Shown in pieces: positions 1,152-61,710 of a stretch of 64,000 bases of DNA. The stretch is from NCBI GenBank assembly GCA_951406725.2, contig OX597814.1, forward strand, positions 189,844,001 to 189,908,000. Direction: 5' to 3'. How positions within the stretch are numbered: position 1 is the first letter of the stretch; each line of letters begins with the position of its first letter. This DNA is from Octopus vulgaris. Its lineage: Eukaryota. A program made the position numbers and the translations under genes. Under the pieces are notes generated by a model that worked only from the letters and a program-made list of their open reading frames with translations, did not search any database and was not told the origin of the DNA.

Positions 1152-3713
1152 TCATTTATTTTATTTTTTATTTTATTTAGTTTCAGCTCACAAGCTGTGG
1201 CCATGCTGGGGCACCGCCATTTGGTGTTGCTACATGATTTTACTTCACGAATGCTTTTTAGAAAATGCCATCTGGTGCATGAGAGAGTTTGATGCAGCTG
1301 CCCTCATCTGCAACTCCTGTCGTGAAGTAGGTTCATCTGGGACATCTGACAAGAAGAGATCCAGTTTCATTTTAAAGACATCTGCATCCATCCCATGCAG
1401 GTCTCTTAGGTTCTTCAGGAGGATATTGAAGAGCTGTGGGCCTCGGAAGCCCAGGCTATCACAGTATCTTGTCCTACATCTTGATGGCAAATTTGGAGTC
1501 CTTGGCACTATGCAGTAACGCCCAGTTCTGGCATTTGTGTAACTCTCGATGTCAAAGTTTGGGACAAGTCCTTCCAGGATCTTCCAGATGTATATTATGG
1601 CATATCTTTCTCGCCTACGCTCTAAGGAATAGAGTCTCAATCTCTTGAGTCTTTCCCAGTAGCTTATATGCTGCACAGAGGCTATCTTCTTCGTGTAGCT
1701 TCGTTGGATCGCCTCAAGTTCTGTGATTAACTTGACACTGGATGGTGACCATAGCTGAGAGCAATAGTCTAAGTGGCTTAGGACAAGTTTCCTCCAGAGG
1801 ACCATCATGGTTTCCTGGTCTCTTGTTCTAAAGGTTCTAAGAATCCATCCGGTCAGCCGCCTACATTTCATTGCCAGTTTAGCAACATGCACATGAAAGG
1901 TTGCATCATCACTCATGTAAATACCCAGGTCTCGCACTGATTGTGCCTCTGGGATTGCAATCCCTCTAGGTCCAGTGTATTTATTGGGTATTGCATTTAG
2001 TTTTGCATGCTGATAGTATAAAGCTTGAAACTTTTCAGCATTGAACTGCATGCTATTCTTTTCAGCCCACTTGTATATTTTGTCCAGCTCACATTGCAGG
2101 TGCTTAGTGTCTTCAGGGTTCTGTATTGCCTGTGAAACGTTTGTATCATCTGCATAACTTGTGATCGTGGTTCTCTGCGTGGCTGAGGGGGCCATTATGA
2201 ACAGTAGTGGTCCTAGAACAGTGCCTTGCGGAACACCGCTCACTATTTGCGTGTTAATGGAAGTGGCCCCATTGGCTACTACCACCTGACTTCTATCCTT
2301 CAGAAAGTCATGAAGCCATTCTCCCAATTTTCCAACTATGCCAAGATTACGCAGTTTGTGACATATCATTCCATGATCGACTTTATCAAAGGCCTTTGCA
2401 AAGTCGAGATATATCACTTCCACATTTGAGTGGTTGAGCAGTCGTTTCAACACCCGGTCATAGTGTTGTGGGAGCTGAATTAAGCAGCTTCTTCCTGGTC
2501 GGAAACCATGTTGGGTGTCAGGCAGCAAGTCATTTTCTTCAAGGAAGGTGATTAGTTTCCTTCTGACTATTCGTTCCATGACCTTGCTGATGTGTGAGGT
2601 CAGATAGATAGGTCTGTAGTTCTTGGCCTCCGCTCTGCTACCTCCTTTATGAATAGGGCATATTTTACCTTCCTTCAGTTTTCTTGGAAGTTTGCCAGTT
2701 GCAAGGAAGCTCTGAAAGAGGAACTGCAGTGGTTTTGCTAGGACTCTCTTACATACTTTTAGAAGGATTGCTGGGAATCTGTCGGGGCCAGTAGCTGAGT
2801 TTGTTTTCATTTCATCAATAGCCTTTATTACATCTTCTTCCTTTATATCGCTGCCTCAGTGGTAAAGAAGTCAGTTGGATTGCTGACTTGAAAATGCCCT
2901 AGGGGTGGAGTGAAAATACTCTTGAATTGCTCATTTAGTATTTCACTTACCCTCATTGGATTTCCTGTGAGTGTGCCGTCCTTTTCAAGGAGTGGCCCTA
3001 TCCTACAGTGCACCGTAGCTGTTTCTTTGGCATAACTGTAGAAAGCTCTGGGGTTAGATTTTATGTTGTCTATAGCCCAGGCTTCTTTGTCTGCTCTTTC
3101 TTTTTCATGGGAGAGTTGCAGACATTTTTCAATTTCCAACAGTTTTATTTTTAGGCGGGACTTTTCACTGCTTTCAATTTGTTTGTTTAGGCGATTTGAA
3201 ATTTTTGTACGCCGTCTCATTAGAATTTTCCTCTCTCTGGGGATTTTGCTCTTGTGTACAGTGGCCTTTCTCTCTGGGACACATTTGTAGCATATGGCTT
3301 GCATTACAGACATGAATTGTTGAAGTTTTATGTCGATGTCTGGCGAGGATAGATATTCAGGCCAGTTTTGTTTGAGGATCTCTTTCTCAATTTGTTTCCA
3401 GTTTTCCTTATGGAAGTTCACGCTGGAAAGATTCTGAGAGTTTCTTGTAGGCTGCATGTCCATGCTTTCCTTTGGCCCGTACATGGTCAGCTCTACCATG
3501 TTGTGATCCGAGAGTAGAGTCGGCGTCACTTTCACATTATGGATGAGATCCATATTATTTGTGAAGCAGAGATCCAGTACGTTACCTGCCCTGGTTGGTT
3601 GGAGTATTACTTGCTCCATGTACAGAGTGTTGATGAGGTTCAGGAGGGACCTCGCCTGTCCTCGTTCACATCGTGTCATTCTTGGGAGAGAAAGTCCCTC
3701 GGGCCATATATAC
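1151..3713 (-). mobile_element. 5'-truncated CR1/L2-group (jockey-like RT) LINE with 3' UTR stem-loop and A-rich tail
   Basis: Two consecutive minus-strand ORFs give the end of an APE domain plus a full RT; short 3' UTR 1151-1244 runs into (TA)n. Confidence 0.93.
1245..2810 (-). CDS. LINE ORF2, reverse transcriptase and C-terminal part (frameshift-separated)
   Basis: Motifs NYRPI, QHGFRPGRSC, YLDFAKAFDKV, GVPQGTVLGPLLF, YADD, DLGI, SLERRR. Confidence 0.93.
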   Translation of the reverse strand: MKTNSATGPDRFPAILLKVCKRVLAKPLQFLFQSFLATGKLPRKLKEGKICPIHKGGSRAEAKNYRPIYLTSHISKVMERIVRRKLITFLEENDLLPDTQHGFRPGRSCLIQLPQHYDRVLKRLLNHSNVEVIYLDFAKAFDKVDHGMICHKLRNLGIVGKLGEWLHDFLKDRSQVVVANGATSINTQIVSGVPQGTVLGPLLFIMAPSATQRTTITSYADDTNVSQAIQNPEDTKHLQCELDKIYKWAEKNSMQFNAEKFQALYYQHAKLNAIPNKYTGPRGIAIPEAQSVRDLGIYMSDDATFHVHVAKLAMKCRRLTGWILRTFRTRDQETMMVLWRKLVLSHLDYCSQLWSPSSVKLITELEAIQRSYTKKIASVQHISYWERLKRLRLYSLERRRERYAIIYIWKILEGLVPNFDIESYTNARTGRYCIVPRTPNLPSRCRTRYCDSLGFRGPQLFNILLKNLRDLHGMDADVFKMKLDLFLSDVPDEPTSRQELQMRAAASNSLMHQMAFSKKHS

Positions 3714-3715
3714 AA
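2843..3715 (-). pseudogene. LINE ORF2 N-terminal part: end of AP endonuclease plus linker; frameshift near 2850
   Basis: PTR..NVLDL and SDH motifs of APE; reading continues in another frame (DIKEEDVIKAIDEMKTN) into the RT ORF. Confidence 0.88.
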
Positions 3716-4116
3716 TCTAAATTAATATGTGCCTACTTATTTATTTATTGATTTATTTATATTCAGATCTTCTATATACTCCAAAATTATTTTCCACTTA
3801 CATAATTCTGTGCCCCACCTATTCTAATTTTTTACATACAACTAAACAAAATACTTTCCTTTCTCTTGTATTTATGAGAATGTATACATACACACACAGA
3901 CGTAAGTAATTTATTAATTATTGGTATATGAAGATATATTTTAGGCGTGTATGTATGTGGAAGTGCATTTATGTACATATGTATGTGTATGAGTAGATGT
4001 ATGCATGTCTATGTGTGTATCAGCATGTCTGTATATGTATGTATGTACATATACATATGTGAGTGTGTGCACATGTACGTGAGTGTGCATATGTGTATAT
4101 ATGTGTTTTTATGTAA

Positions 4117-4149
<33 letters not shown>

Positions 4150-4331
4150 CGATCAGATGCACATACATATGAGTACGCGAGCGTGTATGCATGCACGCCT
4201 GTGTATGTGTATATATATATATGTGCGTGTGCGTATGTGTATACATGCATGCTGGGATATATATGTATATGTGCGTGTGCATATGTATGCGTACGTATGA
4301 ACGTGTGTGTGTGTATATATATATATATACA

Positions 4332-4396
<65 letters not shown>

Positions 4397-4716
4397 TAAT
4401 ATACGTGCATATGTGTGTGTATGCGTGCATATATGTGGATAAAAATAAATATATAGTAATAAATATGTGTGTGTGTGTGTCTGTGTGCACGCATATATAT
4501 GAGTATATGTGTAATACATATAATTAATAATTATTATTAAAAACCTTGTTTCGATTAAAGCTAAATTATAACTGTCTAAAAGACAATATAAAATATAATG
4601 TATTACAACTTACATGTTATCTGGACGAGGTTCAGTCAACTAATTTCTCAAAAGACTGTCTTAACTATTGGTGACGTAGTTCGTAGTATCAAATGTCTTT
4701 ACCTATTTTGGTGACG

Positions 4717-4946
4717 TGGAACACCACCTTCAGTGGAGTAAATCAACCCCAGGACTTATTCTTTGTAAGCCTAGTACTTACTCTATTGGTCACTTTTGCG
4801 GAATAGCTATATAACTGCGACGTAAACGCATCGGTTGTCAAGCGATGTTGGGGGGGGGGACAAACACTGACACACAAACATATACACACACATACATACA
4901 TGCATGCATATATATGTGTATATATACATATATATATATATATATG

Positions 4947-5002
<56 letters not shown>

Positions 5003-5133
5003 TATGTACGTCTACCAAATCCACTCACAAGGCTTTGGTCAGCCCGGAGAGGACTCTTGCCGAAGGTGCCACGCAGTGAGACTGAACCTGGAACCATGTG
5101 GTTGGTAAGCAAGCGACTTACCACACAGCCACT
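4717..5133 (-). mobile_element. SINE-A (tRNA-like head, internal TA/TG microsatellite, CR1/L2-type tail; tail eroded here)
   Basis: Matches about ten other copies in the window; A/B-box-like tggctgtgtggt and ggttcagtc. Confidence 0.85.
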
Positions 5134-22799: not shown

Positions 22800-23208
22800 T
22801 ATTTCTTTATTGCCCACAAGGGGCTAAACACAGAGAGGACAAACAAGGACAGACAAATGGACTAAGTCGATTATATCGACCCCAGTGCGTAACTGGTACT
22901 TAATTTATCGGCCCCGAAAGGATGGAAAGCAAAGTTAACCTCGGCGCAATTTGAACTCAGAACGTAACGGCAGACGAAATGCCTATTTTTTACTACCCAC
23001 AAGGGGCTAAACACAGAGAGGACAAACAGGGACAGACAAACGGATTGAGTCGATTACATCGACCCCAGTGCGTAACTGGTACTTATTTAATCAACCCCGA
23101 AAGGATGAAAGGCAAAGTCGACCTCGGCGGAATTTAACTCACAACGTAACGCAGACGAAATACCGCTAAGCATTTCGCCCGGCGTGCTAACGTTTCTGCC
23201 AGCTCGCC
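22800..23208 (-). mobile_element. SINE-B, one head plus 2 units
   Basis: Internal junction aaaata|ggcatttcgtctg near 22983; flanking repeat ggttgtttct. Confidence 0.9.
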
Positions 23209-23562: not shown

Positions 23563-23976
23563 AGGAGATGAGCTGGCAGAAACGTTAGCATGCTGGGCGA
23601 AATGCTAAGTGGTATTTCGTCTGCCGCTACGTTCTGAGTTCAAATTCGGCCGAGGCCGACTTTGCCTTTCATCCTTTCGGGGTCGATTAAATAAGTACCA
23701 GTTACGCACTGGGATCGATATAATCGACTTAATCTGTTTGTCCTTTTTTTGTCCTCTCTGTGTTTAGCCCCTTGTGGGTAGTAAAAAAATAGGTATTTCG
23801 TCTGTCGTTACGTTCTGAGTTCAAATTCCGCCGAGGTTGACTCTGCCTTTCATCCTTTCGGGGTCGATTAAATAAGTACCAGTTATGCACTGGGGTCGAT
23901 ATAATTGATTTAATCCGTTTGTCTGTCCTTGTTTGTCCTCCCTATGTTTAGCCCCTTGTGGGTAATAAAGAAATAG
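23563..23976 (+). mobile_element. SINE-B, one head plus 2 units
   Basis: Internal junction aaata|ggtatttcg at 23792. Confidence 0.9.
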
Positions 23977-25299: not shown

Positions 25300-26130
25300 A
25301 CTAAAGGCAGCCAGCGAGCTCAGTCGTTAGCGCCCCAGACAAAATGCTCAACGGCATTTCGCCCGTCTTTACGTTCTGAGTTCAAAGTCCGCCGAGGTCG
25401 ATTTTGCCTTTCGTCCTTCCAATGTCGACGAAAATAAGTACCAGATGAGCACTGAGGTCGATGTAACTGATTTCCCCCTCCCACCAAATTTCTGGCTTTG
25501 CGCCAAAATTTGAAATCAATAATTCTAGTGACTAAGGCAGTGAGCTGGCAGAAATGCTTAGTGATATTTCGTCTGCCGCTACGTTCTGAGTTCAAATTCC
25601 GCCGAGGTCGGCTTTGCCTTTCATCCTTTCGGGGTCGATTAAATAAGTACCAGTTACGCACTGGGGGTCGATGTAATCGACTTAATCCGTTTGTCCGTCC
25701 TTGTTTGTCCTCTCTGTGTTTAGCCCCTTGTAGGTAGTAAAGAAATAGGTATTTCGTCTGCCGTTACGTTCTAAGTTCAGATTCCGCCGAGGTCGACTTT
25801 GCTTTCATCCTTTCGGGGTCGATAAATTAAGTACCAGTTACGCCCTAGGGTCGATGTAATCGACTTAATCCTTGTGTCTGTCCTTGTTTGTCCTCTCTAT
25901 GTTTAGCCCCTTCTGAACAATAAAGAAATAAGAATTGTTAGCACGCTAGACAAAATTTCCGCATTTCTTCCGTCTTCACGTTCTGGGTTCAAATTACGCC
26001 GAGGTTGACTTTGCCTTTTCATCCTTCCGAAGTCGATAAGATAGGTGGCAGTCGAGTACTTGGGTCAATGTAAATGACTGGCCTCATCCCCCAAAATTGC
26101 TAGCCTTGTACCAAAATTTGAAACCAATGA
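25300..26130 (+). mobile_element. Nested SINE-B cluster: two old-tail copies, the second interrupted by a 2-unit Tx1-tail array
   Basis: Old tail ccaaaatttgaaa(t/c)caat near 25503 and 26111; repeat attctagtgact at 25522 and 26130; junction ggtatttcg at 25748. Confidence 0.85.
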
Positions 26131-30469: not shown

Positions 30470-31255
30470 AAGGCGGCGAGCTGGCAGAAACGTTAGCGCG
30501 CCGGGCGAAATGTTTAGCGGTATTTCGTCTGCCGTTACGTTCTGAGTTCAAATTCCGCCGAGGTCGACTTTGCCTTTCATCCTTTCGGGGCCGATAAATT
30601 AAGTACCAGTTGCGCACTGGGGTCGATATAATCGACTTAATTCGTTTGTCGGTCCTTGTTTGTCCCATCGATGTTTAGCCCCTTGTGGGTAGTAAAAGAA
30701 ATAGGTATTTCGTCCGTCCTTATCTTCTGAGTTCAAACTCCGCCGAGGTCAACTTTGCCTTTCATACTTTCGGGGTCGATTAAATAAGTACCAGTTACGC
30801 ACTGGGGTCGATATAATCGACTTAATTCGTTTGTCTGTCCTTGTTTGTCCTCTCTGTGTTTAGCCCTTTGTGGGTAGTAAAAAACTAGGCATTTCGTCTG
30901 TCGCTACGTTCTGAGTTGCAATTCCGCCGAGGTCGACTTTGCTTTTCATCTTCTCGGGGTCGATAAATAAAGTACCAGTTTCGCACTGTGGTCGATATAC
31001 TAGACTTAATCCGTTTGTCTGTCCTTGTTTGTCCTCTCTGTGTTTAGCCCCTTGTGGGTAGTAAAGAAATAGGTATTTCGTCCGTCCTTATGTACTGAGT
31101 TCAAATTCCGCCAAGGTCGACTTTGCCTTTCATCCTTTCGGGGTCGATAAATTAAGTACCAGTTACGCACAGGGGTCAATATAATCAACTTGATGCCTTT
31201 TTCTGTCCTTGTTTGTCCCCTCTATGTTTAGCCCCTTGTGGGCAGTAAAGAAATA
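30470..31255 (+). mobile_element. SINE-B, one head plus 4 units of 184-185 bp
   Basis: Units start at 30519, 30704, 30888, 31072; TSD tataaggtagaaaa at 30454-30467 and 31256-31269. Confidence 0.93.
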
Positions 31256-33968: not shown

Positions 33969-34386
33969 AAAGGTGGCGAGCTGGCAGGATCGTTAGCACA
34001 CCGGGCGAAATGCGTAGCAGTATTTCGTCTGCTGTTAAGTTCTGAGTTCAAATTCCGCCGAGTTCGGCTTTGTGCTTCATCCTTTCGGGGTCGATTAAAT
34101 AAGTACCAGTTACGCACTGGGGTCAATGTAATCGACTTAATCCGTTTGTCTGTCCTTGTTTGTCTCCTCTGTGTTTAGCTCCTAGTGGGTAATAAAGAAA
34201 CAGGTATTTCGTCTGCCGTTACGTTCCGAGTTCAAATTCCGCCGAGGTCGACTTTGCCTTTCATCCTTTCGGGGTCGATAAATTAAGTACCAGTTACGCA
34301 CTGGTGTCAATGTAATCGGCTTAATTCCTTTGTCTGTCCTTGTTTGTCCCCTCTATGTTTAGCACCTTGTGGGTAGTAAAGAAATA
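33969..34386 (+). mobile_element. SINE-B, one head plus 2 units
   Basis: Junction gaaaca|ggtatttcg at 34203; flanking repeat aaacgtaactt. Confidence 0.91.
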
Positions 34387-38394: not shown

Positions 38395-38627
38395 TTGTTT
38401 CTTTATTTCCTACAAGGAGCTAAACATAGAGGGGACAAACAAGGACAGACAAAGGGATTAAGTCGATTACATCGACCCCAGTGCGTAACTGGTACTTAAT
38501 TTATCGACGTTGGAAGGATGAAAGATAAGTCGACCTCGGCGGAATTTGAACTCAGAACGTAACGGCAGATGAAATACGGCTACGCATTTCGCCCGGCGTG
38601 CTAACGGTTCTGCCAGCTCACCGCCTT
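38395..38627 (-). mobile_element. SINE-B monomer nested in an old SINE-A-like copy (about 38110-38760)
   Basis: TSD atttccatctaccatatt on both sides. Confidence 0.88.
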
Positions 38628-49135: not shown

Positions 49136-49551
49136 TATTTCTTTACTACCCACAAGGGGCTAAACACAGAGGGGACAAACAAGGACAGGCAAACGGATTA
49201 AGTCGATTACATCGACTCCAGTGCGTAACTGGTACTTAATTTATCAACCCCGAGAGGATGAAAGGCAAAGTCGACCTCGGCGGAATTTGAACTCAGGACG
49301 TAGCGACAGGCGAAATACCTATTTCTTTATTACCCACAAGGGGCTAAACATAGAAGGGAAAAACGGACGGACATAGGTATTAAGTCGGTTACATCGACCC
49401 CCAGTGCGTAACTGGTACTTAATTTATCGACCCCGAAAGGATGAAAGGCAAAGTCGACCTTGGCGGAGTTTGAACTCAGAACGCAGCGGCAGACGAAATA
49501 CTGCTAAGCATTTCGCCCGGCGTGCTAACGTTTTTGCCAGCTCGCCGCCTT
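49136..49551 (-). mobile_element. SINE-B, one head plus 2 units
   Basis: Junction gaaata|ggtatttcg near 49319; TSD ttctttagaggaatacc. Confidence 0.92.
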
Positions 49552-57241: not shown

Positions 57242-58097
57242 TACACGCATAAATAACGCAGCAAGCGGGTAGAACTGTAAGCGAGTCGGACAAAATGCTC
57301 AGTAGCATTTCTTCCTGCTCTTTACGTTCAGGGCTGAATTACTACCGAGGTCATCTTGGTATTTCATCATTCCGGGGTTGATAAAATAAGTACCATAAGT
57401 GAAAGTTGGACACCGGAGGCGTTCTAATCGATTTACTCACTTCCTTAAAATTGCTAGCCTTGTGCTAAAGTTTTAAGCCATACATGCATAATATATTTTC
57501 CAAGATAGGGAAATTTTGGCATCTAATATTAGTACGGGCACCTTACAAACAAATCAAATCTACATGAAGGAAATGTAGAGATTTAGTCTCAACAAGGTCT
57601 CGGTTAAATCAAGAATTCTTAAACAATTTATTTGGTGGTTCCTAATGGGTTTAGAACAGCCAAACTTTTCATAGACAGTTTTATTTGTTTAATCTCTTAT
57701 GAAATATAGCTTTATGAAAGAGAAAAACGTGATTACTAAAGATATATAACAATTAATTATGGGTTCCCCTTCGGTTCCTCAAGAGTAAAAAGGCTGGGAA
57801 ACGCCTCTGTAAAGATGCTGTCAAATTACCATCTAGATATAACCTTTTGTGGTTCAATAAATTATCGTTTGAGGTAGCGAGCTGGCAGAAACGTTAGCAC
57901 GGCGGGCGAAATGCGTAGCCGTATTTCGTCTGCCGCACATGTGTTCGTGGTAAGAATTGCTGTTTCTTGGTGTTAATATTGTTAATAACTGTTGTTTCTT
58001 GTTAAGCTGTTGAATAACTTAACTGTTGGAGTTTTCAATTGAAAACACTTAGTGCTTGTGGTAGCACGCGTTGTTCATTCCCCCTTTGGGGGGAAGA

Positions 58098-59624
58098 ATG
58101 TCGTCTAGCATGGAGCCTACCGTTGGAGCAGAAATACTTGTTTCTCCTGTTGAGAGGAGGAAATACATGTCCGGCGAGGAGCCAACTACAGACAAGGAAA
58201 TAGGGGTTTCCCCCGCTACAAGAAGGAATCGCAGAGAGGATAATATATTTGATATTTTTGGAGATGTGTCTGAGAGCTCGTCAGAACTTTCACCAGAAGA
58301 GTTTCCGACTTTGCCAGAGAACAAAGGCATTGTGTCGAAGAGAATAATTGATGTGCCTAGCATCCAGATAGAACCAAAAAATAGAAAAAAAAGTTTTGCG
58401 TTGGCTGCTGGGGGTGGAACCCGGATACTGTCGACGAATAAAAGCGACTTTATGAAATACAGCCAAATGATGAAAATAACTGACAACGGTGTGAAAATTG
58501 AACCTCCGCAAAAGTTATTACAAGAAGAAAAGCAAAAAACAATAATTTTCAAAACATATTGTCTACAAAAAAGAAAAATTGAAAGAATGTCAGAAGAGAA
58601 AATAGAAAAGTGCTTAAAGCCAATATGGGGCGACGTAGTATATCTGAGAAGAGGAAAAAAATTCGGAACGGTGGAAGTAAGGTTCACCAATAAAGAAATA
58701 GCACACAAGAACTCAGTTGAAACGCTGAAAACGAACGACGTGGAGTTAATCCCCTATTATATGGGGATGAGGACGTCGCGAATAAAAATTACAAGGGTCC
58801 CGCCAGAGGTCGAACCTATGTGGTTGTTGGCGGCAGTCCTAATCAAAGAGGTAGAAAAAATTACTCTCCTCCAGGCTACCGCTACGGAAAACCCACGCTG
58901 GGATGGTCAAACAATTAATCTTCTCATTCAAGCGGACCCTAAAATAATTCAAGCAATTCCTGAGACAATTGAGGTAGGGGAGGAGAACCTCGTGGTGTTT
59001 GTTGAGGGCCGAAAACCTCGATGTTTTTTATGTGGTCAATTAGGCCACATTCGAAGGAACTGCAAGGAAAATGAAGAAGAGGAGGAAGAGGAGAAAAAAG
59101 ACAAAGAGGAAGAAGATAAAGAAGAAACAGATGAGAAAAAAACAACAAACAAAAGAAAAATACAACCAGCAACCCAGCCGAGAGCGGCGACTACTACAGA
59201 ACAACGACCAAAAAAGACTGCCAGAAGAGAAAAAGAAGAAAAAGGCATAATAGCCGTATACACTAAAGATACTGAGCTCATGAGAGACATTCAACTGATA
59301 AAGACTGTAAAAAAAATAGATAACCTTTCAGAGGAATTTATCAATTACGACATATATGAAGTCTCAAATAAGACTTATAGAATTCTACAAAATAAGTACA
59401 GAAAGACTGTATCTTCATTGAGATCAGAATTTAACAAGTCGATATTTCATGGATTACCAGCCCCGATCCCGCGAGAAAAGGAAAAGGTGGAGATTCCCCC
59501 TCCACCTGATAATTCTGTGTCGGTGGTGAGACGGGATTTTGACAAATCTATTTCCCAAGACCGTCCACCTCCGACCCTGGATCAAAAAAAAGGTGGAGGG
59601 TCCCCCTCCACCGGACAATCCTAA
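58098..59624 (+). CDS. Non-LTR ORF1 (gag-like nucleic-acid-binding protein with CCHC zinc knuckle)
   Basis: Uninterrupted ORF of about 508 codons from ATG 58098; CFLCGQLGHIRRNC (CX2CX4HX4C) preceded by a putative RRM-like region and followed by an acidic/basic low-complexity tail. Confidence 0.88.
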   Translation: MSSSMEPTVGAEILVSPVERRKYMSGEEPTTDKEIGVSPATRRNRREDNIFDIFGDVSESSSELSPEEFPTLPENKGIVSKRIIDVPSIQIEPKNRKKSFALAAGGGTRILSTNKSDFMKYSQMMKITDNGVKIEPPQKLLQEEKQKTIIFKTYCLQKRKIERMSEEKIEKCLKPIWGDVVYLRRGKKFGTVEVRFTNKEIAHKNSVETLKTNDVELIPYYMGMRTSRIKITRVPPEVEPMWLLAAVLIKEVEKITLLQATATENPRWDGQTINLLIQADPKIIQAIPETIEVGEENLVVFVEGRKPRCFLCGQLGHIRRNCKENEEEEEEEKKDKEEEDKEETDEKKTTNKRKIQPATQPRAATTTEQRPKKTARREKEEKGIIAVYTKDTELMRDIQLIKTVKKIDNLSEEFINYDIYEVSNKTYRILQNKYRKTVSSLRSEFNKSIFHGLPAPIPREKEKVEIPPPPDNSVSVVRRDFDKSISQDRPPPTLDQKKGGGSPSTGQS

Positions 59625-59639
59625 TTAAACAGGTAAGTG

Positions 59640-60050
59640 ATGGCTATTCACATTGGTTGTTTAAATGTTCATGGCCTGTTGTCAAGCTGGAAGCAAGGAC
59701 GCTTTCTAAATGACATCAGGTCGAGAAATTTGGATGTAATTGTTGCAACGGAAACCCGGGTGAAGGGGCCAAGAGATCTGCTCCCCCTCCTGAATGGCTA
59801 CGAGAAATACGTTTCTCCGAGTCGGGCGGGAGGTGGGGGTGGGGTGTTGGTCCTACTAAAAAGAAACCGGGTAGCCAAGAAAAAGTGACCCAGAAGGCAG
59901 GCTGGTCGTTCTCGACTTGACATTCAGTTGTGGCAAGACAATCAGGCTGGTCGCTATTTACGCACCAAACATTATTGGCCTGCAAACTGAATATTTTCGT
60001 GGCCTAGGAAAGTTCCTAGCCACGTCGCATTCACTGTTGTGCGTGCAAGG
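59640..60050 (+). pseudogene. ORF2 AP-endonuclease N-terminal fragment (frameshifted, truncated before GDFN)
   Basis: IGCLNVHGL, DVIVATET, GGVLVLL; after a frameshift near 59885, DPEGRLVVLD and LVAIYAPN; then jumps to 3' UTR-like sequence. Confidence 0.87.
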
Positions 60051-61077
60051 AACCGTGTGAATAGACGAGGAAAAAAAAAAAGGAAAAATAAAAAGGTATC
60101 AGCGGTAGATCGGGGCTTGTGGGATCGGAGCGTAACTTGATCATCGCTTCATTTGTATTGTTTTTGTACTGTGTATTCCATTCGATTTTTATGTATTATA
60201 TTTTATTTTTGATGTCACATTTATATAAAATCATATCGATTCACTGATCCCATCAGTTGTACTGTCCATATCTATGTTTGGCCCCCGGTGGGCAATAAAG
60301 AAATTCGTATTTCGTCTGTCTCTACGTTCTGAGTTCAAATTACGCCGAGGTCGACTTTGCCTTTCATCCTTTCGGGATCGATAAATTAAATATCTGTTGC
60401 GTACTGGGGTCGATCTAATCGACTGGCTCCCTCCCCCAAAATTTCAGGTCTTGTGCCTAGTGTAGAAAAGAATGAATTATCGTTTGAGGGGTCCTTTAGA
60501 CAGGCTTTAAAATTACGTTCTACCTTCTTAAAAAACACGGAACTACATATAATATAGTCGTAATGGCCATGTCTGGAATACTTTCGATCATAAATTTCCC
60601 AAAGCAGGATTTTCCTTATCAAGAGTTTCACAGCAATAATAAATCTAATGTATGTAGCAAGTCTGGTCTGGTTCCAATTCTATTAAGTGCAGCCCATTCG
60701 TCGTTAACTGTGTGGTTTGCCGTTACAGTGTAAGAAAATATATTATTATAAAAGTGCTTTACCTACAAACAAAGAAATAAACTTTCCAATTGAAGACCTG
60801 GTGAAATGTGATGATTAAACATTCATAAGCTTCACAAAGTTATTAGTGCCAGTATTATTGAAGTATATCAAAGTGTTCTAATACTACTTCGAAAACTTTG
60901 AAGAATAATCCTTCCAATTATTTATTATTTTGAAAGCAAATCTGATGTGTAGTTTCGATGATCGCTTTGCAACCAGGCGGTCACAAGTTCAAACTTAATG
61001 CAGGTCTTTATTATTTTATTTTTTTCATCTATAACCAAAGAACAGCCAATGCCATTTGGTAAAGTATGTAGATTGAA

Positions 61078-61345
61078 GTGTGGAGACGCATGGCTTAGTG
61101 GTTAGGGTGTCAGCATCATGATCGTAAGATTGAGGTTTCGATTCCTGGACCGGGCGACGCGTTGTGTTCTTGAGCAAAACACTTCATTTCCCGTTGCTCC
61201 AGTCCACTCAGCTGGCAAAAATGAGTAACGCTGCGATGGACTGGCGTCCCATCCAGCTGGGGAACACATATGCCATAGAAACCGGGAAACTGGGCCCATG
61301 AGCCTGGCTAGGCTTTAAAAGGGGGCATTTATTTATTTTTTATAA
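61078..61345 (+). mobile_element. SINE-C, tail type 2 (older copy at about 61408-61660)
   Basis: tRNA head, CORE-like domain; TSD gtagattgaa at 61068-61077 and 61346-61355. Confidence 0.88.
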
Positions 61346-61710
61346 GTAGATTGAAACTACTTAGAACCCATCAGATATATGTGTTGTCTGCACGTATGTG
61401 CATATGTGTGTAGAGGCGCTTGGCTTAGTGGTTAGGGTGTTGAGCTCATGATCCTATGATTGTAGTTTCAATTCCTGGTAAGGGGCGTTACATCGTGTTC
61501 ATGAGTAAAGCACTTCCTTTCACGTTGTTCCTGTCCACTCGACTGATGAAAATTAATATTCCTGCGACAGACCGGCGTCCCCCGTCCAGGGGAAAGGATA
61601 TATACCCCCACCGAATCCGGGAAACCTGTCTCTAGAACCAATGGATCGGAAAGGACTTCTTTTATGTGTGTGAGTGCCTGCTGTGTCCGTGAGTGCTTTT
61701 GCATTTTACC

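Follow-up and report, generated by a model that had tools for sequence, protein, structure and literature searches.

A Tx1-like LINE family found at one site in the head of an octopus SINE, and a candidate LINE/SINE circuit

Can a LINE use as its landing site a SINE that it also mobilizes? The question is raised by a locus of Octopus vulgaris (contig OX597814.1) at which a retrotransposon lies inside a SINE, within a stretch of 64,000 nt that was analysed as a whole and is called the window here. A sequence-only reading of the window had proposed that a Tx1-like element, which sits with its flanking TSD in the A-B box interval of a SINE that has an outer TSD, targets its own dependent SINE. 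The architecture was confirmed at both levels, inner and outer (Table 1), and the element at 57937-60305 proved to be an internally deleted member of an L1/Tx1-type LINE family of ~5.35 kb, named family A. The motifs that we take to be the A and B boxes of the SINE were assigned by comparison with the general consensus.

The window element and its family

The window copy lacks reference nt 2110-5080 and with them the final part of the endonuclease and the entire RT; the deletion (~2.97 kb) reaches to the last codons of ORF2, and the copy is non-autonomous. Its ORF1 has a zf-CCHC match, and its ORF2 remnant matches an APE domain. The window ORF1 is 96% identical to that of copy L047, for which no zf-CCHC match was obtained at E ≤ 0.01. 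The A1 5' UTR has 40 scored genome matches at 96-100% among 67 candidates, with a SINE head upstream in 29/30 loci and a shortened head in the remaining one. The last 28 nt of the element occur in 71 exact genome copies (reversed control: 0), and the last ~45 nt of the 3' UTR are common to the type-1 SINE and to sister LINE families. Left and right inner TSDs differ at 14 of 507 positions in 39 full-length elements (L042, L051, L059, and L142 left out); beyond them, the left copy differs from the right at position 14 in 23/39 elements and at position 17 in 33/34.

Table 1. Features of the window element, its host SINE, and SINE arrays in the window
Feature	Position	Strand	Remarks
Host SINE outer TSD, left copy	57860..57873	+	14 bp, AATTATCGTTTGAG, identical to 60475-60488
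Host SINE head, 5' part, G..C variant	57873..57919	+	84-97% to 14 other window places
A-box-like motif in host SINE head	57883-57893	+	presumed A box, from the general consensus
Target site / inner TSD, left copy	57920..57932	+	13 bp, CGTATTTCGTCTG
Target-like bases of the LINE's own 5' end	57933..57936	+	left/right copy differences
LINE 5' UTR, young subfamily A1	57937..58097	+	genome matches
ORF1, 508 aa, intact, CCHC zinc knuckle	58098..59624	+	PF00098, E = 8.6e-5
ORF2 remnant: APE aa 1-82, frameshift, aa 86-137, deletion, last codons	59640..60060	+	
LINE 3' UTR	60061..60305	+	tail motif in the last ~45 nt; no poly(A)
Target site / inner TSD, right copy	60306..60318	+	same 13-mer as the left copy
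Remaining host SINE head and shared SINE body	60319..60428	+	>20 body matches in window, 68-91%
B box of host SINE head	60333-60343	+	
Type-2 tail of host SINE, not LINE-like	60429..60474	+	
Host SINE outer TSD, right copy	60475..60488	+	
Example array: SINE head and four ~184-bp body+tail units	30472..31254	+	joined at the LINE target site; outer TSD
Other window arrays	22800-23207(-), 23570-23974, 25551-25929, 33971-34385, 49137-49545(-)		approximate positions

L033, L056, and L144 each carry an open reading frame for the complete ORF2 (1133 aa, APE+RT+zf-RVT), and both ORFs are open together in 0 of 43 full-length copies. ORF2 of L056 matches PF03372, PF00078, and PF13966, that is, an N-terminal APE endonuclease, an RT, and a C-terminal zinc motif, and its best solved relative is human L1 ORF2p (E = 8e-64), far above R2. 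ORF1 is separate (508 aa), and the TSD measures 13 bp on target and 11-15 bp in the off-target copies L066, L147, and L164. Family A thereby belongs to the L1/Tx1 group, for which an ORF2 with APE, RT, and zinc motif, a separate ORF1, and a 10-20-bp TSD are expected, the last being typical of APE LINEs (excerpts of PMC4494074 and PMC6895275). The endonuclease hairpin of family A aligns without gaps to human L1 EN, while the LTx chimera 2v0r needs two extra residues; by this alignment the extended Tx1L-like hairpin is absent. Such a hairpin is a feature of Tx1L itself and is not established as a definition of the clade, and a gag-like CCHC zinc knuckle in ORF1 characterizes Tx1 elements but not mammalian L1. 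Insertion at specific sequences, another trait of the Tx1 clade, is seen in family A and also in its sister families B and D. No named Tx1 reference is among the homologues listed, and we treat family A as a candidate Tx1 member that appears to behave as an element of that clade. It comprises two subfamilies of unequal age, A1 and A2, with pairwise divergences of ~2% and ~9% (8.7%), respectively; the LINE tree is star-like, and the variant at 5' position 14 tracks it only loosely. The element is covered by contigs of other data sets (4 runs), which are uninformative on transcript ends, and no data set labelled as RNA is among those listed as containing it.

LINE ends in the SINE head

In 73 of 77 copies (78 rows less L158, which is a SINE), the LINE's 3' end falls on a single position of the SINE head, ^[C/G]GTATTTCGTCTG, in the interval from A box to B box; since L042 has the same flanks as L041 and is counted among the 77, the independent ends are 72 of 76. 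With target-like positions at 25 places in the window (~2e-4 per base) as the chance yardstick, the on-target placement is not chance. Flanks of the four off-target ends begin with CGTA, GGTA, TGTA, and GATA (NRTA). Most on-target copies (61/73) run on into SINE body and tail, the tail being LINE-like (type-1) in 52 of the 73 and type-2 in nine. The host heads and bodies diverge by 14.2% and 9.3%, respectively, and the LINE interior by 1.6-2.3% (L042, L061, and four truncated copies left out, and for bodies also L053, L057, L063, and L069); heads and bodies are thus far more divergent than the LINE, and the insertions of family A are therefore independent. Junctions of the older 5' type, A2, have the target motif in 35/39 and SINE context in 38/39, but a family-A tail follows A2-type 5' ends at the expected distance in only 1/20 and ORF2 in only 2/20. 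At the 5' alignment end no head was scored in 25 of the 77 copies, mainly older G-type fragments (52/78 scored); both observations count against the scheme set out below.

The sequence-only reading had made site specificity depend on the flanks of other copies not being random, and they are not, in either subfamily and across independent hosts. As judged from sequence, family A has one site, one orientation, a duplication of ~13 bp, independent hosts, and rare off-target copies with an NRTA start.

SINE arrays, sister families, and rival readings

Genome-wide, the target site (SGTATT) comes directly after 34,056 of 83,868 exact SINE tails. Junctions of the tail+14-nt type number 31,804 at this position (site 1), and 2,536 junctions lie at a second, upstream head position (site 2), a ratio of ~12 to 1. 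The claim that all internal junctions of the SINE arrays occur at the site is correct for 8/8 scored head-less (body-to-body) junctions of the window and too general otherwise, given that at 25929 a tail is joined to the upstream head position, as at the site-2 junctions elsewhere. With ~59% of its tails off the site, the SINE shows much lower specificity than the LINE, and these off-site flanks have the LINE's relaxed NRTA start: among 66 non-array flanks, the NRTA-matching positions hold R in 62, T in 49, and A in 56. SINE units differ by 9.1-9.3% and A2 copies by 8.7%; the SINE shares with family A an insertion signature (site and NRTA rule), and it appears to overlap with A2 in age, as expected of a stringent LINE/SINE pair. 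The SINE, a candidate tRNA-derived SINE (SINE2), is present in at least 83,868 copies counted by tails, with A/B-like motifs seen by eye and TSDs in 11/20 tested. Outer TSDs have 9/173 mismatches around LINE hosts and 3/144 around plain SINEs, next to 14/507 for inner TSDs, under a scoring that favours perfect repeats and that found no outer TSD in 9/23 LINE hosts and 9/20 plain SINEs. Given the low plain-SINE value, the 9% spread among SINE copies may overstate their age, and the hosts are therefore shown to be independent, but not to be older.

SINE tails in the window match the last 33-42 nt of the element at 81-91%, in agreement with the earlier claim of a shared tail, from which the host SINE with its type-2 tail departs. 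The type-1 tail is identical to family A at 37-40 of 44-45 positions and to a sister family, C, at 44/45 and 40/46; being nearer to C than to A, it marks the LINE group and not one family. The motif is shared by at least four sister LINE families, one of which fits the SINE tail better than family A does. Folding predicts a 4-bp hairpin for most of the tails (z-scores +0.65 to -1.32, not significant). Families B and D are target-specific as well: B, with an ORF2 57% identical to that of family A, has 11/11 ends in (ATT)n, and D has 14/20 in either of two other repeats. Family C has 0/20 ends on site 1 and 6/20 starting AAGAA, with L142 and L190 at the second head site. The idea of a SINE belonging to this one LINE is only partly borne out: SINE copies occupy the same site and share the NRTA start, but the tail is shared with sister families, that of family C is closer, and some hosts carry another tail.

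We judge it likely that family A inserts into the SINE head by target-primed reverse transcription and mobilizes the type-1 SINE, the passenger thus making the pads of its driver. A two-ORF LINE with an APE endonuclease would act at one head site of an abundant tRNA-like SINE, the bottom strand presumably being nicked first, where the 13-mer starts. Its RNA would have a few host-derived bases at the 5' end and probably also at the 3' end; those at the 5' end may anneal to the target and overwrite target bases, and this pairing and overwriting could explain the precise full-length 5' junctions. The main trans-mobilizer of the type-1 SINE, which has the 3' tail motif of the LINE group, would be family-A-type machinery, and probably that of A2, whose age and junction base agree with those of the SINE. 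A SINE landing at a loose NRTAT site would found a new pad, and one landing at the preferred site inside an existing SINE would give head+(body)n arrays, part of whose growth may be local duplication or multimer copying. A LINE insertion would leave the A and B boxes kilobases apart, whereas a SINE unit added at the site would retain their spacing and leave a fresh target; the promoter split that had been foreseen is thus expected of LINE insertions and not of SINE additions. More tentatively, and just short of what we would call probable, these steps may close into a circuit: the LINE site lies in the promoter of the mobilized SINE, every SINE copy is a pad, SINE-into-SINE insertion remakes promoter and target, host sequence at the RNA ends partly guides insertion, and sister families partition targets (two head sites, (ATT)n, other repeats) yet share one SINE.

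Other readings bear on separate parts of this scheme. Family A might target the SINE without driving it, the mover being family C or a family not found and the heads serving as a safe harbour, as for Tx1-Mar on Mariner-N4. The tail identity points that way, as do the AAGAA ends of family C and its two copies at site 2, which is joined by the 2,536 SINE tails and where the CAA/CAG SINE subtype predominates among the junctions listed; but site 1 prevails ~12 to 1, site 1 with the NRTA rule is the signature of family A and not of C, and one search for LINEs that combine a 3' UTR of A type with the exact SINE tail found none, a weak negative given its guessed pattern, and we find this reading somewhat unlikely. 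Rather less credit is given to the view that most array junctions are not separate insertions but descend from a few targeted masters through multimer copying (pol III read-through) or local duplication, under which LINE targeting would hold and SINE self-targeting would be much rarer than the counts. Adjacent array units differ at 3.44 diagnostic bases versus 4.74 in shuffled pairs (18 arrays, p = 0.003), so neighbours are more alike than chance and the junction count overstates independent insertions; the TTTT run is missing from 86/117 units, and long arrays with even 184-185-bp spacing and one tail variant occur among the matches listed. Against wholesale copying, adjacent units are on average 7.9% apart, compared with 8.8% for random pairs, with <2% in just 1/27 pairs; linkage between first and second units across loci is weak at most (Mantel r = 0.10, p = 0.055); and a type-1 unit lies ahead of a type-2 body at 7/51 site-1 junctions, which places some junctions beyond simple duplication.

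At the level of mechanism, specificity could come chiefly from RNA-DNA pairing and not from the endonuclease, with read-through RNA ends, extended by downstream target bases, annealing at loosely nicked NRTAT sites and bringing each element back to sequence that resembles its own flank, a serious possibility if not the favoured one, and one that can coexist with family A as inserter and driver. The first junction base tracks the element (A1 has C; A2 and the SINE have G), L131 has G on its 5' side and C on its 3' side, 5' target copies carry element-specific variants (10/22 A2-adjacent heads, 0/83 plain heads), and the endonuclease hairpin region is as long as in human L1 and shorter than the Tx1L graft. 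The G..C head variant is found in 43/44 heads adjoining an A1 LINE versus 15/56 plain heads. Against pairing as the main source, truncated A1 copies, whose 5' flank is necessarily host DNA, also sit in G..C heads (small n), which fits recognition upstream of the nick, and family B, despite its related ORF2, uses another target. Two further readings are far less likely. The real target might be a multicopy RNA gene ancestral to the SINE head, with SINEs as decoys, in keeping with Tx1 families that hit RNA-gene loci (Mutsu 5S, Keno U2, Dewa tRNA-Leu spacer; excerpts of PMC3706591); this is very improbable, with SINE body and tail downstream of most on-target copies, no tRNA gene reported by ARAGORN in the window, and no Rfam match at E ≤ 10 for one SINE copy. 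For the window as a whole, the 150 Rfam matches listed of 196 are all miRNA noise caused by microsatellites. That head, LINE, and SINE body travel as one composite by hitch-hiking or template switching, with flanks inherited and not targeted, would agree with young copies being mostly full length with the same junction (35/39) and with an outer TSD around the whole in 14/23 tested; it is contradicted by flanks 4-9 times more divergent than the LINE, by two host tail types, by truncated copies that retain the head (L044, L055, L067, L132, L136, L141, L145, L154, and L155), and by off-target copies with TSDs of their own, and we give it almost no weight.

Meaning and comparison with known systems

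If family A indeed inserts into a SINE that it mobilizes, the case differs from known site-specific LINEs, whose target is kept up by the host or a third element, in that the target is apparently made by a passenger of the LINE group. Pads made in this way are a possible mechanism for the persistence of a strictly targeted element and might account in part for the abundance of SINEs in octopus genomes, where they are the main repeat class (excerpt of PMC8967140). With ~40% of scored SINE tails at the site, "tandem repeat" annotations of ~184-bp units are to be read as insertion arrays. Sister families with the same tail and different targets, together with subfamilies that differ by one junction base, provide a natural series on endonuclease recognition versus RNA-DNA pairing.

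Xenopus Tx1L and Tx2L are APE LINEs at a single site inside other mobile elements, Tx1D and Tx2D, as family A is inside a SINE; no loop arises there because the host DNA transposon is independent of the LINE. Dewa, Keno, Mutsu, Kibi, and Koshi are sequence-specific Tx1 families with multicopy targets, and family B resembles Kibi and Koshi in its microsatellite target (excerpts of PMC3706591 and PMC4494074); unlike here, their targets as described are host genes, spacers, or microsatellites, and the element does not multiply its target. R2 and other site-specific LINEs with target sequence in their RNA resemble family A in 5' joining via the upstream target (excerpts of PMC4494074 and PMC6895275), although R2 uses a restriction-like endonuclease and rDNA and family A an APE, and 5' pairing in family A is deduced solely from variants. 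Octopus tRNA-derived SINEs go back to Ohshima and Okada 1994 (via excerpts of PMC4758252 and PMC4824008). Compared by description, they and the MetaSINEs share a tRNA-like head, a common body, and exchangeable 3' tails with our SINE, while these excerpts mention no Tx1 partner or self-insertion. In the openly accessible literature, Repbase, Dfam, Repbase Reports, and bioRxiv supplements apart, no description was found of a LINE that inserts specifically into its partner SINE or of a SINE as its own target.

The closest known case comes from crocodilians, where Tx1-Mar LINEs and SINEU have a Mariner target in common (Kojima 2015, excerpt of PMC4494074). There, as here, target-specific Tx1 LINEs and presumed partner SINEs share a transposon target, tandem SINE insertions sandwich the TSD, two hot spots serve different families, and truncated copies are used to exclude hitch-hiking. 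As described in that excerpt, a third element, Mariner-N4_AMi, provides the target, and the tail of SINEU does not derive from a LINE; in the octopus, by contrast, it is the pol III promoter of the SINE itself that contains the target, the SINE has the tail of the LINE group, and junctions run to tens of thousands.

Target specificity of family A

A genome-wide LINE that takes the head of a SINE (the part with the A and B boxes) as its site-specific target is real, and so are SINE arrays, each a head followed by repeated ~184-bp body and tail units, built at the same site, a 13-mer between the two boxes (site 1). The LINE is family A, to which the window element belongs. A 3′ UTR search of the genome gave 208 candidates, 40 of which were scored, and an exact 28-nt LINE tail pattern has 71 genome copies (control, 0); the 78 loci examined, including the window, are the union of both searches and cover only part of the family. 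At L158 the LINE-like tail belongs to a SINE, leaving 77 LINE ends, 73 of them at the target (72 by script and L059, whose tail is 9 nt short, by eye). The flanks of L042 repeat those of L041, giving 72 of 76 independent on-target ends. Site and orientation are direct observations, and the flank tabulation bears out the site-specific insertion proposed in the sequence-only reading; that the LINE targets the SINE is held with very high confidence. The four off-target copies (L066, L143, L147, L164) follow a relaxed NRTA rule, with flanks starting CGTA, GGTA, TGTA, and GATA, and three have their own 11-15-bp TSD.

At full length a copy measures ~5.35 kb, and its ORF2 (1133 aa, with APE, RT, and zf-RVT domains) has human L1 ORF2p as its best match of known structure. 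Of the named homologues, the nearest come from cephalopods (Argonauta 62%, Octopus sinensis 56%). Among 43 full-length copies checked, three (L033, L056, and L144) have an open ORF2 and six others an open ORF1; none has both. Near-identical flanks occur in L041/L042 (G000:C3:153110641-153126091), L235, L238, and L246 (contig C25), and L269, L281, and L283 (C7), and these copies may be local duplications or assembly duplicates. The final 35 nt of the L158 SINE are identical to the family-A tail, possibly a tail exchange through template switching. Downstream of the LINE in L069, partial head and B box repeats stand in tandem with a junction different from that of the usual arrays.

The window coordinates confirm the proposed nesting of outer TSD, head, 13-mer, LINE, 13-mer, B box, body, and tail. 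The host SINE was wrongly said to carry the tail of the LINE; it ends in the second kind of tail (type 2, 60429-60474). This tail, also in L058, L064, and L179, often stops just short of an ATT-rich stretch and has a loose likeness to the 3′ end of a sister LINE family, B; both features suggest a different partner LINE for the type-2 SINE subfamily. The window element has an intact ORF1 (508 aa, CCHC knuckle) with a 35-bp direct repeat (86%) at its end (59482-59516 and 59588-59622), and its ORF2 is broken; nt 2110-5080 of the full copy are missing, and the element is thus without RT. Adjoining it are two copies (61080-61330 and 61415-61500) of a different tRNA-like SINE family. The SINE head contains an imperfect inverted repeat with the target at its loop-stem border (38540-38625 on the minus strand, 57906-57930; predicted hairpin, z = −1.66), and this predicted DNA structure could possibly play a part in nicking.

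Coordinates of the window element and its host SINE
Feature	Position	Remark
Outer TSD, 14 bp	57860-57873 and 60475-60488	encloses host SINE and LINE
A-box-like motif of SINE head	57883-57893	
Inner 13-mer CGTATTTCGTCTG, left copy	57920-57932	
LINE element	57937-60305	
Inner 13-mer CGTATTTCGTCTG, right copy	60306-60318	
B box	60333-60343	followed by SINE body and tail

Independent insertions and the 5′ junction

A fixed composite of head, LINE, and body moving as one would also place every LINE at one site. It is ruled out because the flanks are divergent (34 full copies differ pairwise by 1.6%-2.3% in the LINE and by 14.2% in the flanking heads; 30 host bodies differ by 9.3%), because host tails are mixed (52 LINE-like, nine of the second kind, 12 cut or unclear), and because nine young 5′-truncated copies keep a head upstream. 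These data speak for independence, not for hosts older than the LINE, as dating by TSD mismatches gave no clear age order. No head was scored at the 5′ alignment end in 25 of 77 copies, mostly older fragments.

The left and right 13-mers differ at 14 of 507 positions and behave as a TSD. Past the 13-mer, the left copy departs systematically from the right, at position 14 in 23/39 and position 17 in 33/34. The young subfamily A1 (1.9% pairwise) joins the target with C, and G..C-type heads make up 43/44 of those next to A1 vs 15/56 plain heads (p = 3e-14). The older A2, with a different 5′ UTR and a diverged ORF1, joins with G, and its left target copy holds a variant in 10/22 adjacent heads vs 0/83 plain heads; five of these ten also have common changes upstream of the nick. 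Among 39 A2-type 5′ ends, the target motif is immediately upstream in 35 and SINE context is found in 38 (head with target upstream in 21, SINE tail and target upstream in 13). At the searched position, a family-A tail was found for 1/20 A2-type 5′ ends and ORF2 for 2/20; the loci that tie the A2 5′ type to a family-A 3′ end are L157, L160, L165, L255, and L259. In the simplest reading, the LINE RNA would begin with host-like sequence, pair with the target, and overwrite it. Comparable 5′ pairing has been proposed for R2 (PMC4494074, PMC6895275).

Shared tails, arrays, and a probable LINE/SINE loop

The SINE was taken to be the LINE's own. Site 1 is indeed common to family A and the SINE arrays, but the LINE-like (type-1) tail is found across several related LINE families, with family C the closest match (44/45 and 40/46; 37-40 of 44-45 for family A). 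Family-C flanks are mostly scattered, with an AAGAA start in 6/20 and two copies, in L142 (4250-4420) and L190, at a second, upstream head site; this site, exemplified in the window at 25929, has 2,536 SINE tail junctions, and in L142 a single head carries insertions of both families, C and A. Family B (ORF2 identity 57%) has its 3′ ends in (ATT)n at 11/11 loci. It is young and lies in tandem head-to-tail runs of ~5.87-kb period with many open 1145-aa ORF2 frames (L168-L187; G000:C4:93802392-93834472, contigs C47 and C50), and is probably the most recently active of the group. At 14/20 loci, the 3′ flank of family D (L208-L227) is either of two recurrent sequences, which look like two further repeat families serving as targets. 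Such target-specific sisters fit Tx1-clade behaviour.

The genome has 83,868 exact type-1 tails, 34,056 of them (41%) directly followed by SGTATT, and a shorter-tail pattern continuing for 14 nt of the target occurs 31,804 times. In fetched DNA, 51/117 SINE tails lead into target and body (a type-1 unit preceding a type-2 body at seven of these 51 junctions), and the other 66 follow the loose rule of A followed by NRTAT, as in off-target LINEs. A2 matches the SINE both in junction base and in spread (8.7% and 9.1%-9.3% pairwise). Neighbouring array units, which differ overall by 7.9%, have more diagnostic bases in common than expected by chance (18 arrays, p = 0.003), so that arrays may have grown partly by duplication or multimer copying.

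Bottom-strand nicking followed by TPRT is established for LINEs and would operate at the target here. The SINE would be moved in trans mainly by A-type machinery, each SINE-into-SINE insertion would regenerate promoter and target, and a LINE insertion would abolish the promoter. We regard this full loop, in which every SINE copy offers a new landing pad, as probable. RNA pairing, as read from the 5′ junctions, might instead of enzyme recognition be the main cause of specificity, which we think somewhat doubtful; these judgements concern separate steps and are not shares of a single total.

Our literature search, which did not extend to Repbase, Dfam, one MetaSINE supplement, or Ohshima and Okada 1994, any of which might affect the claim to novelty, found no case of a LINE targeting its partner SINE's promoter. 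Among described systems, crocodilian Tx1-Mar and SINEU come closest (PMC4494074): they have a common target in a Mariner element, with a TSD sandwiched between tandem SINEs. In both systems LINE and SINE have one target, but in octopus this target is the SINE's own promoter.
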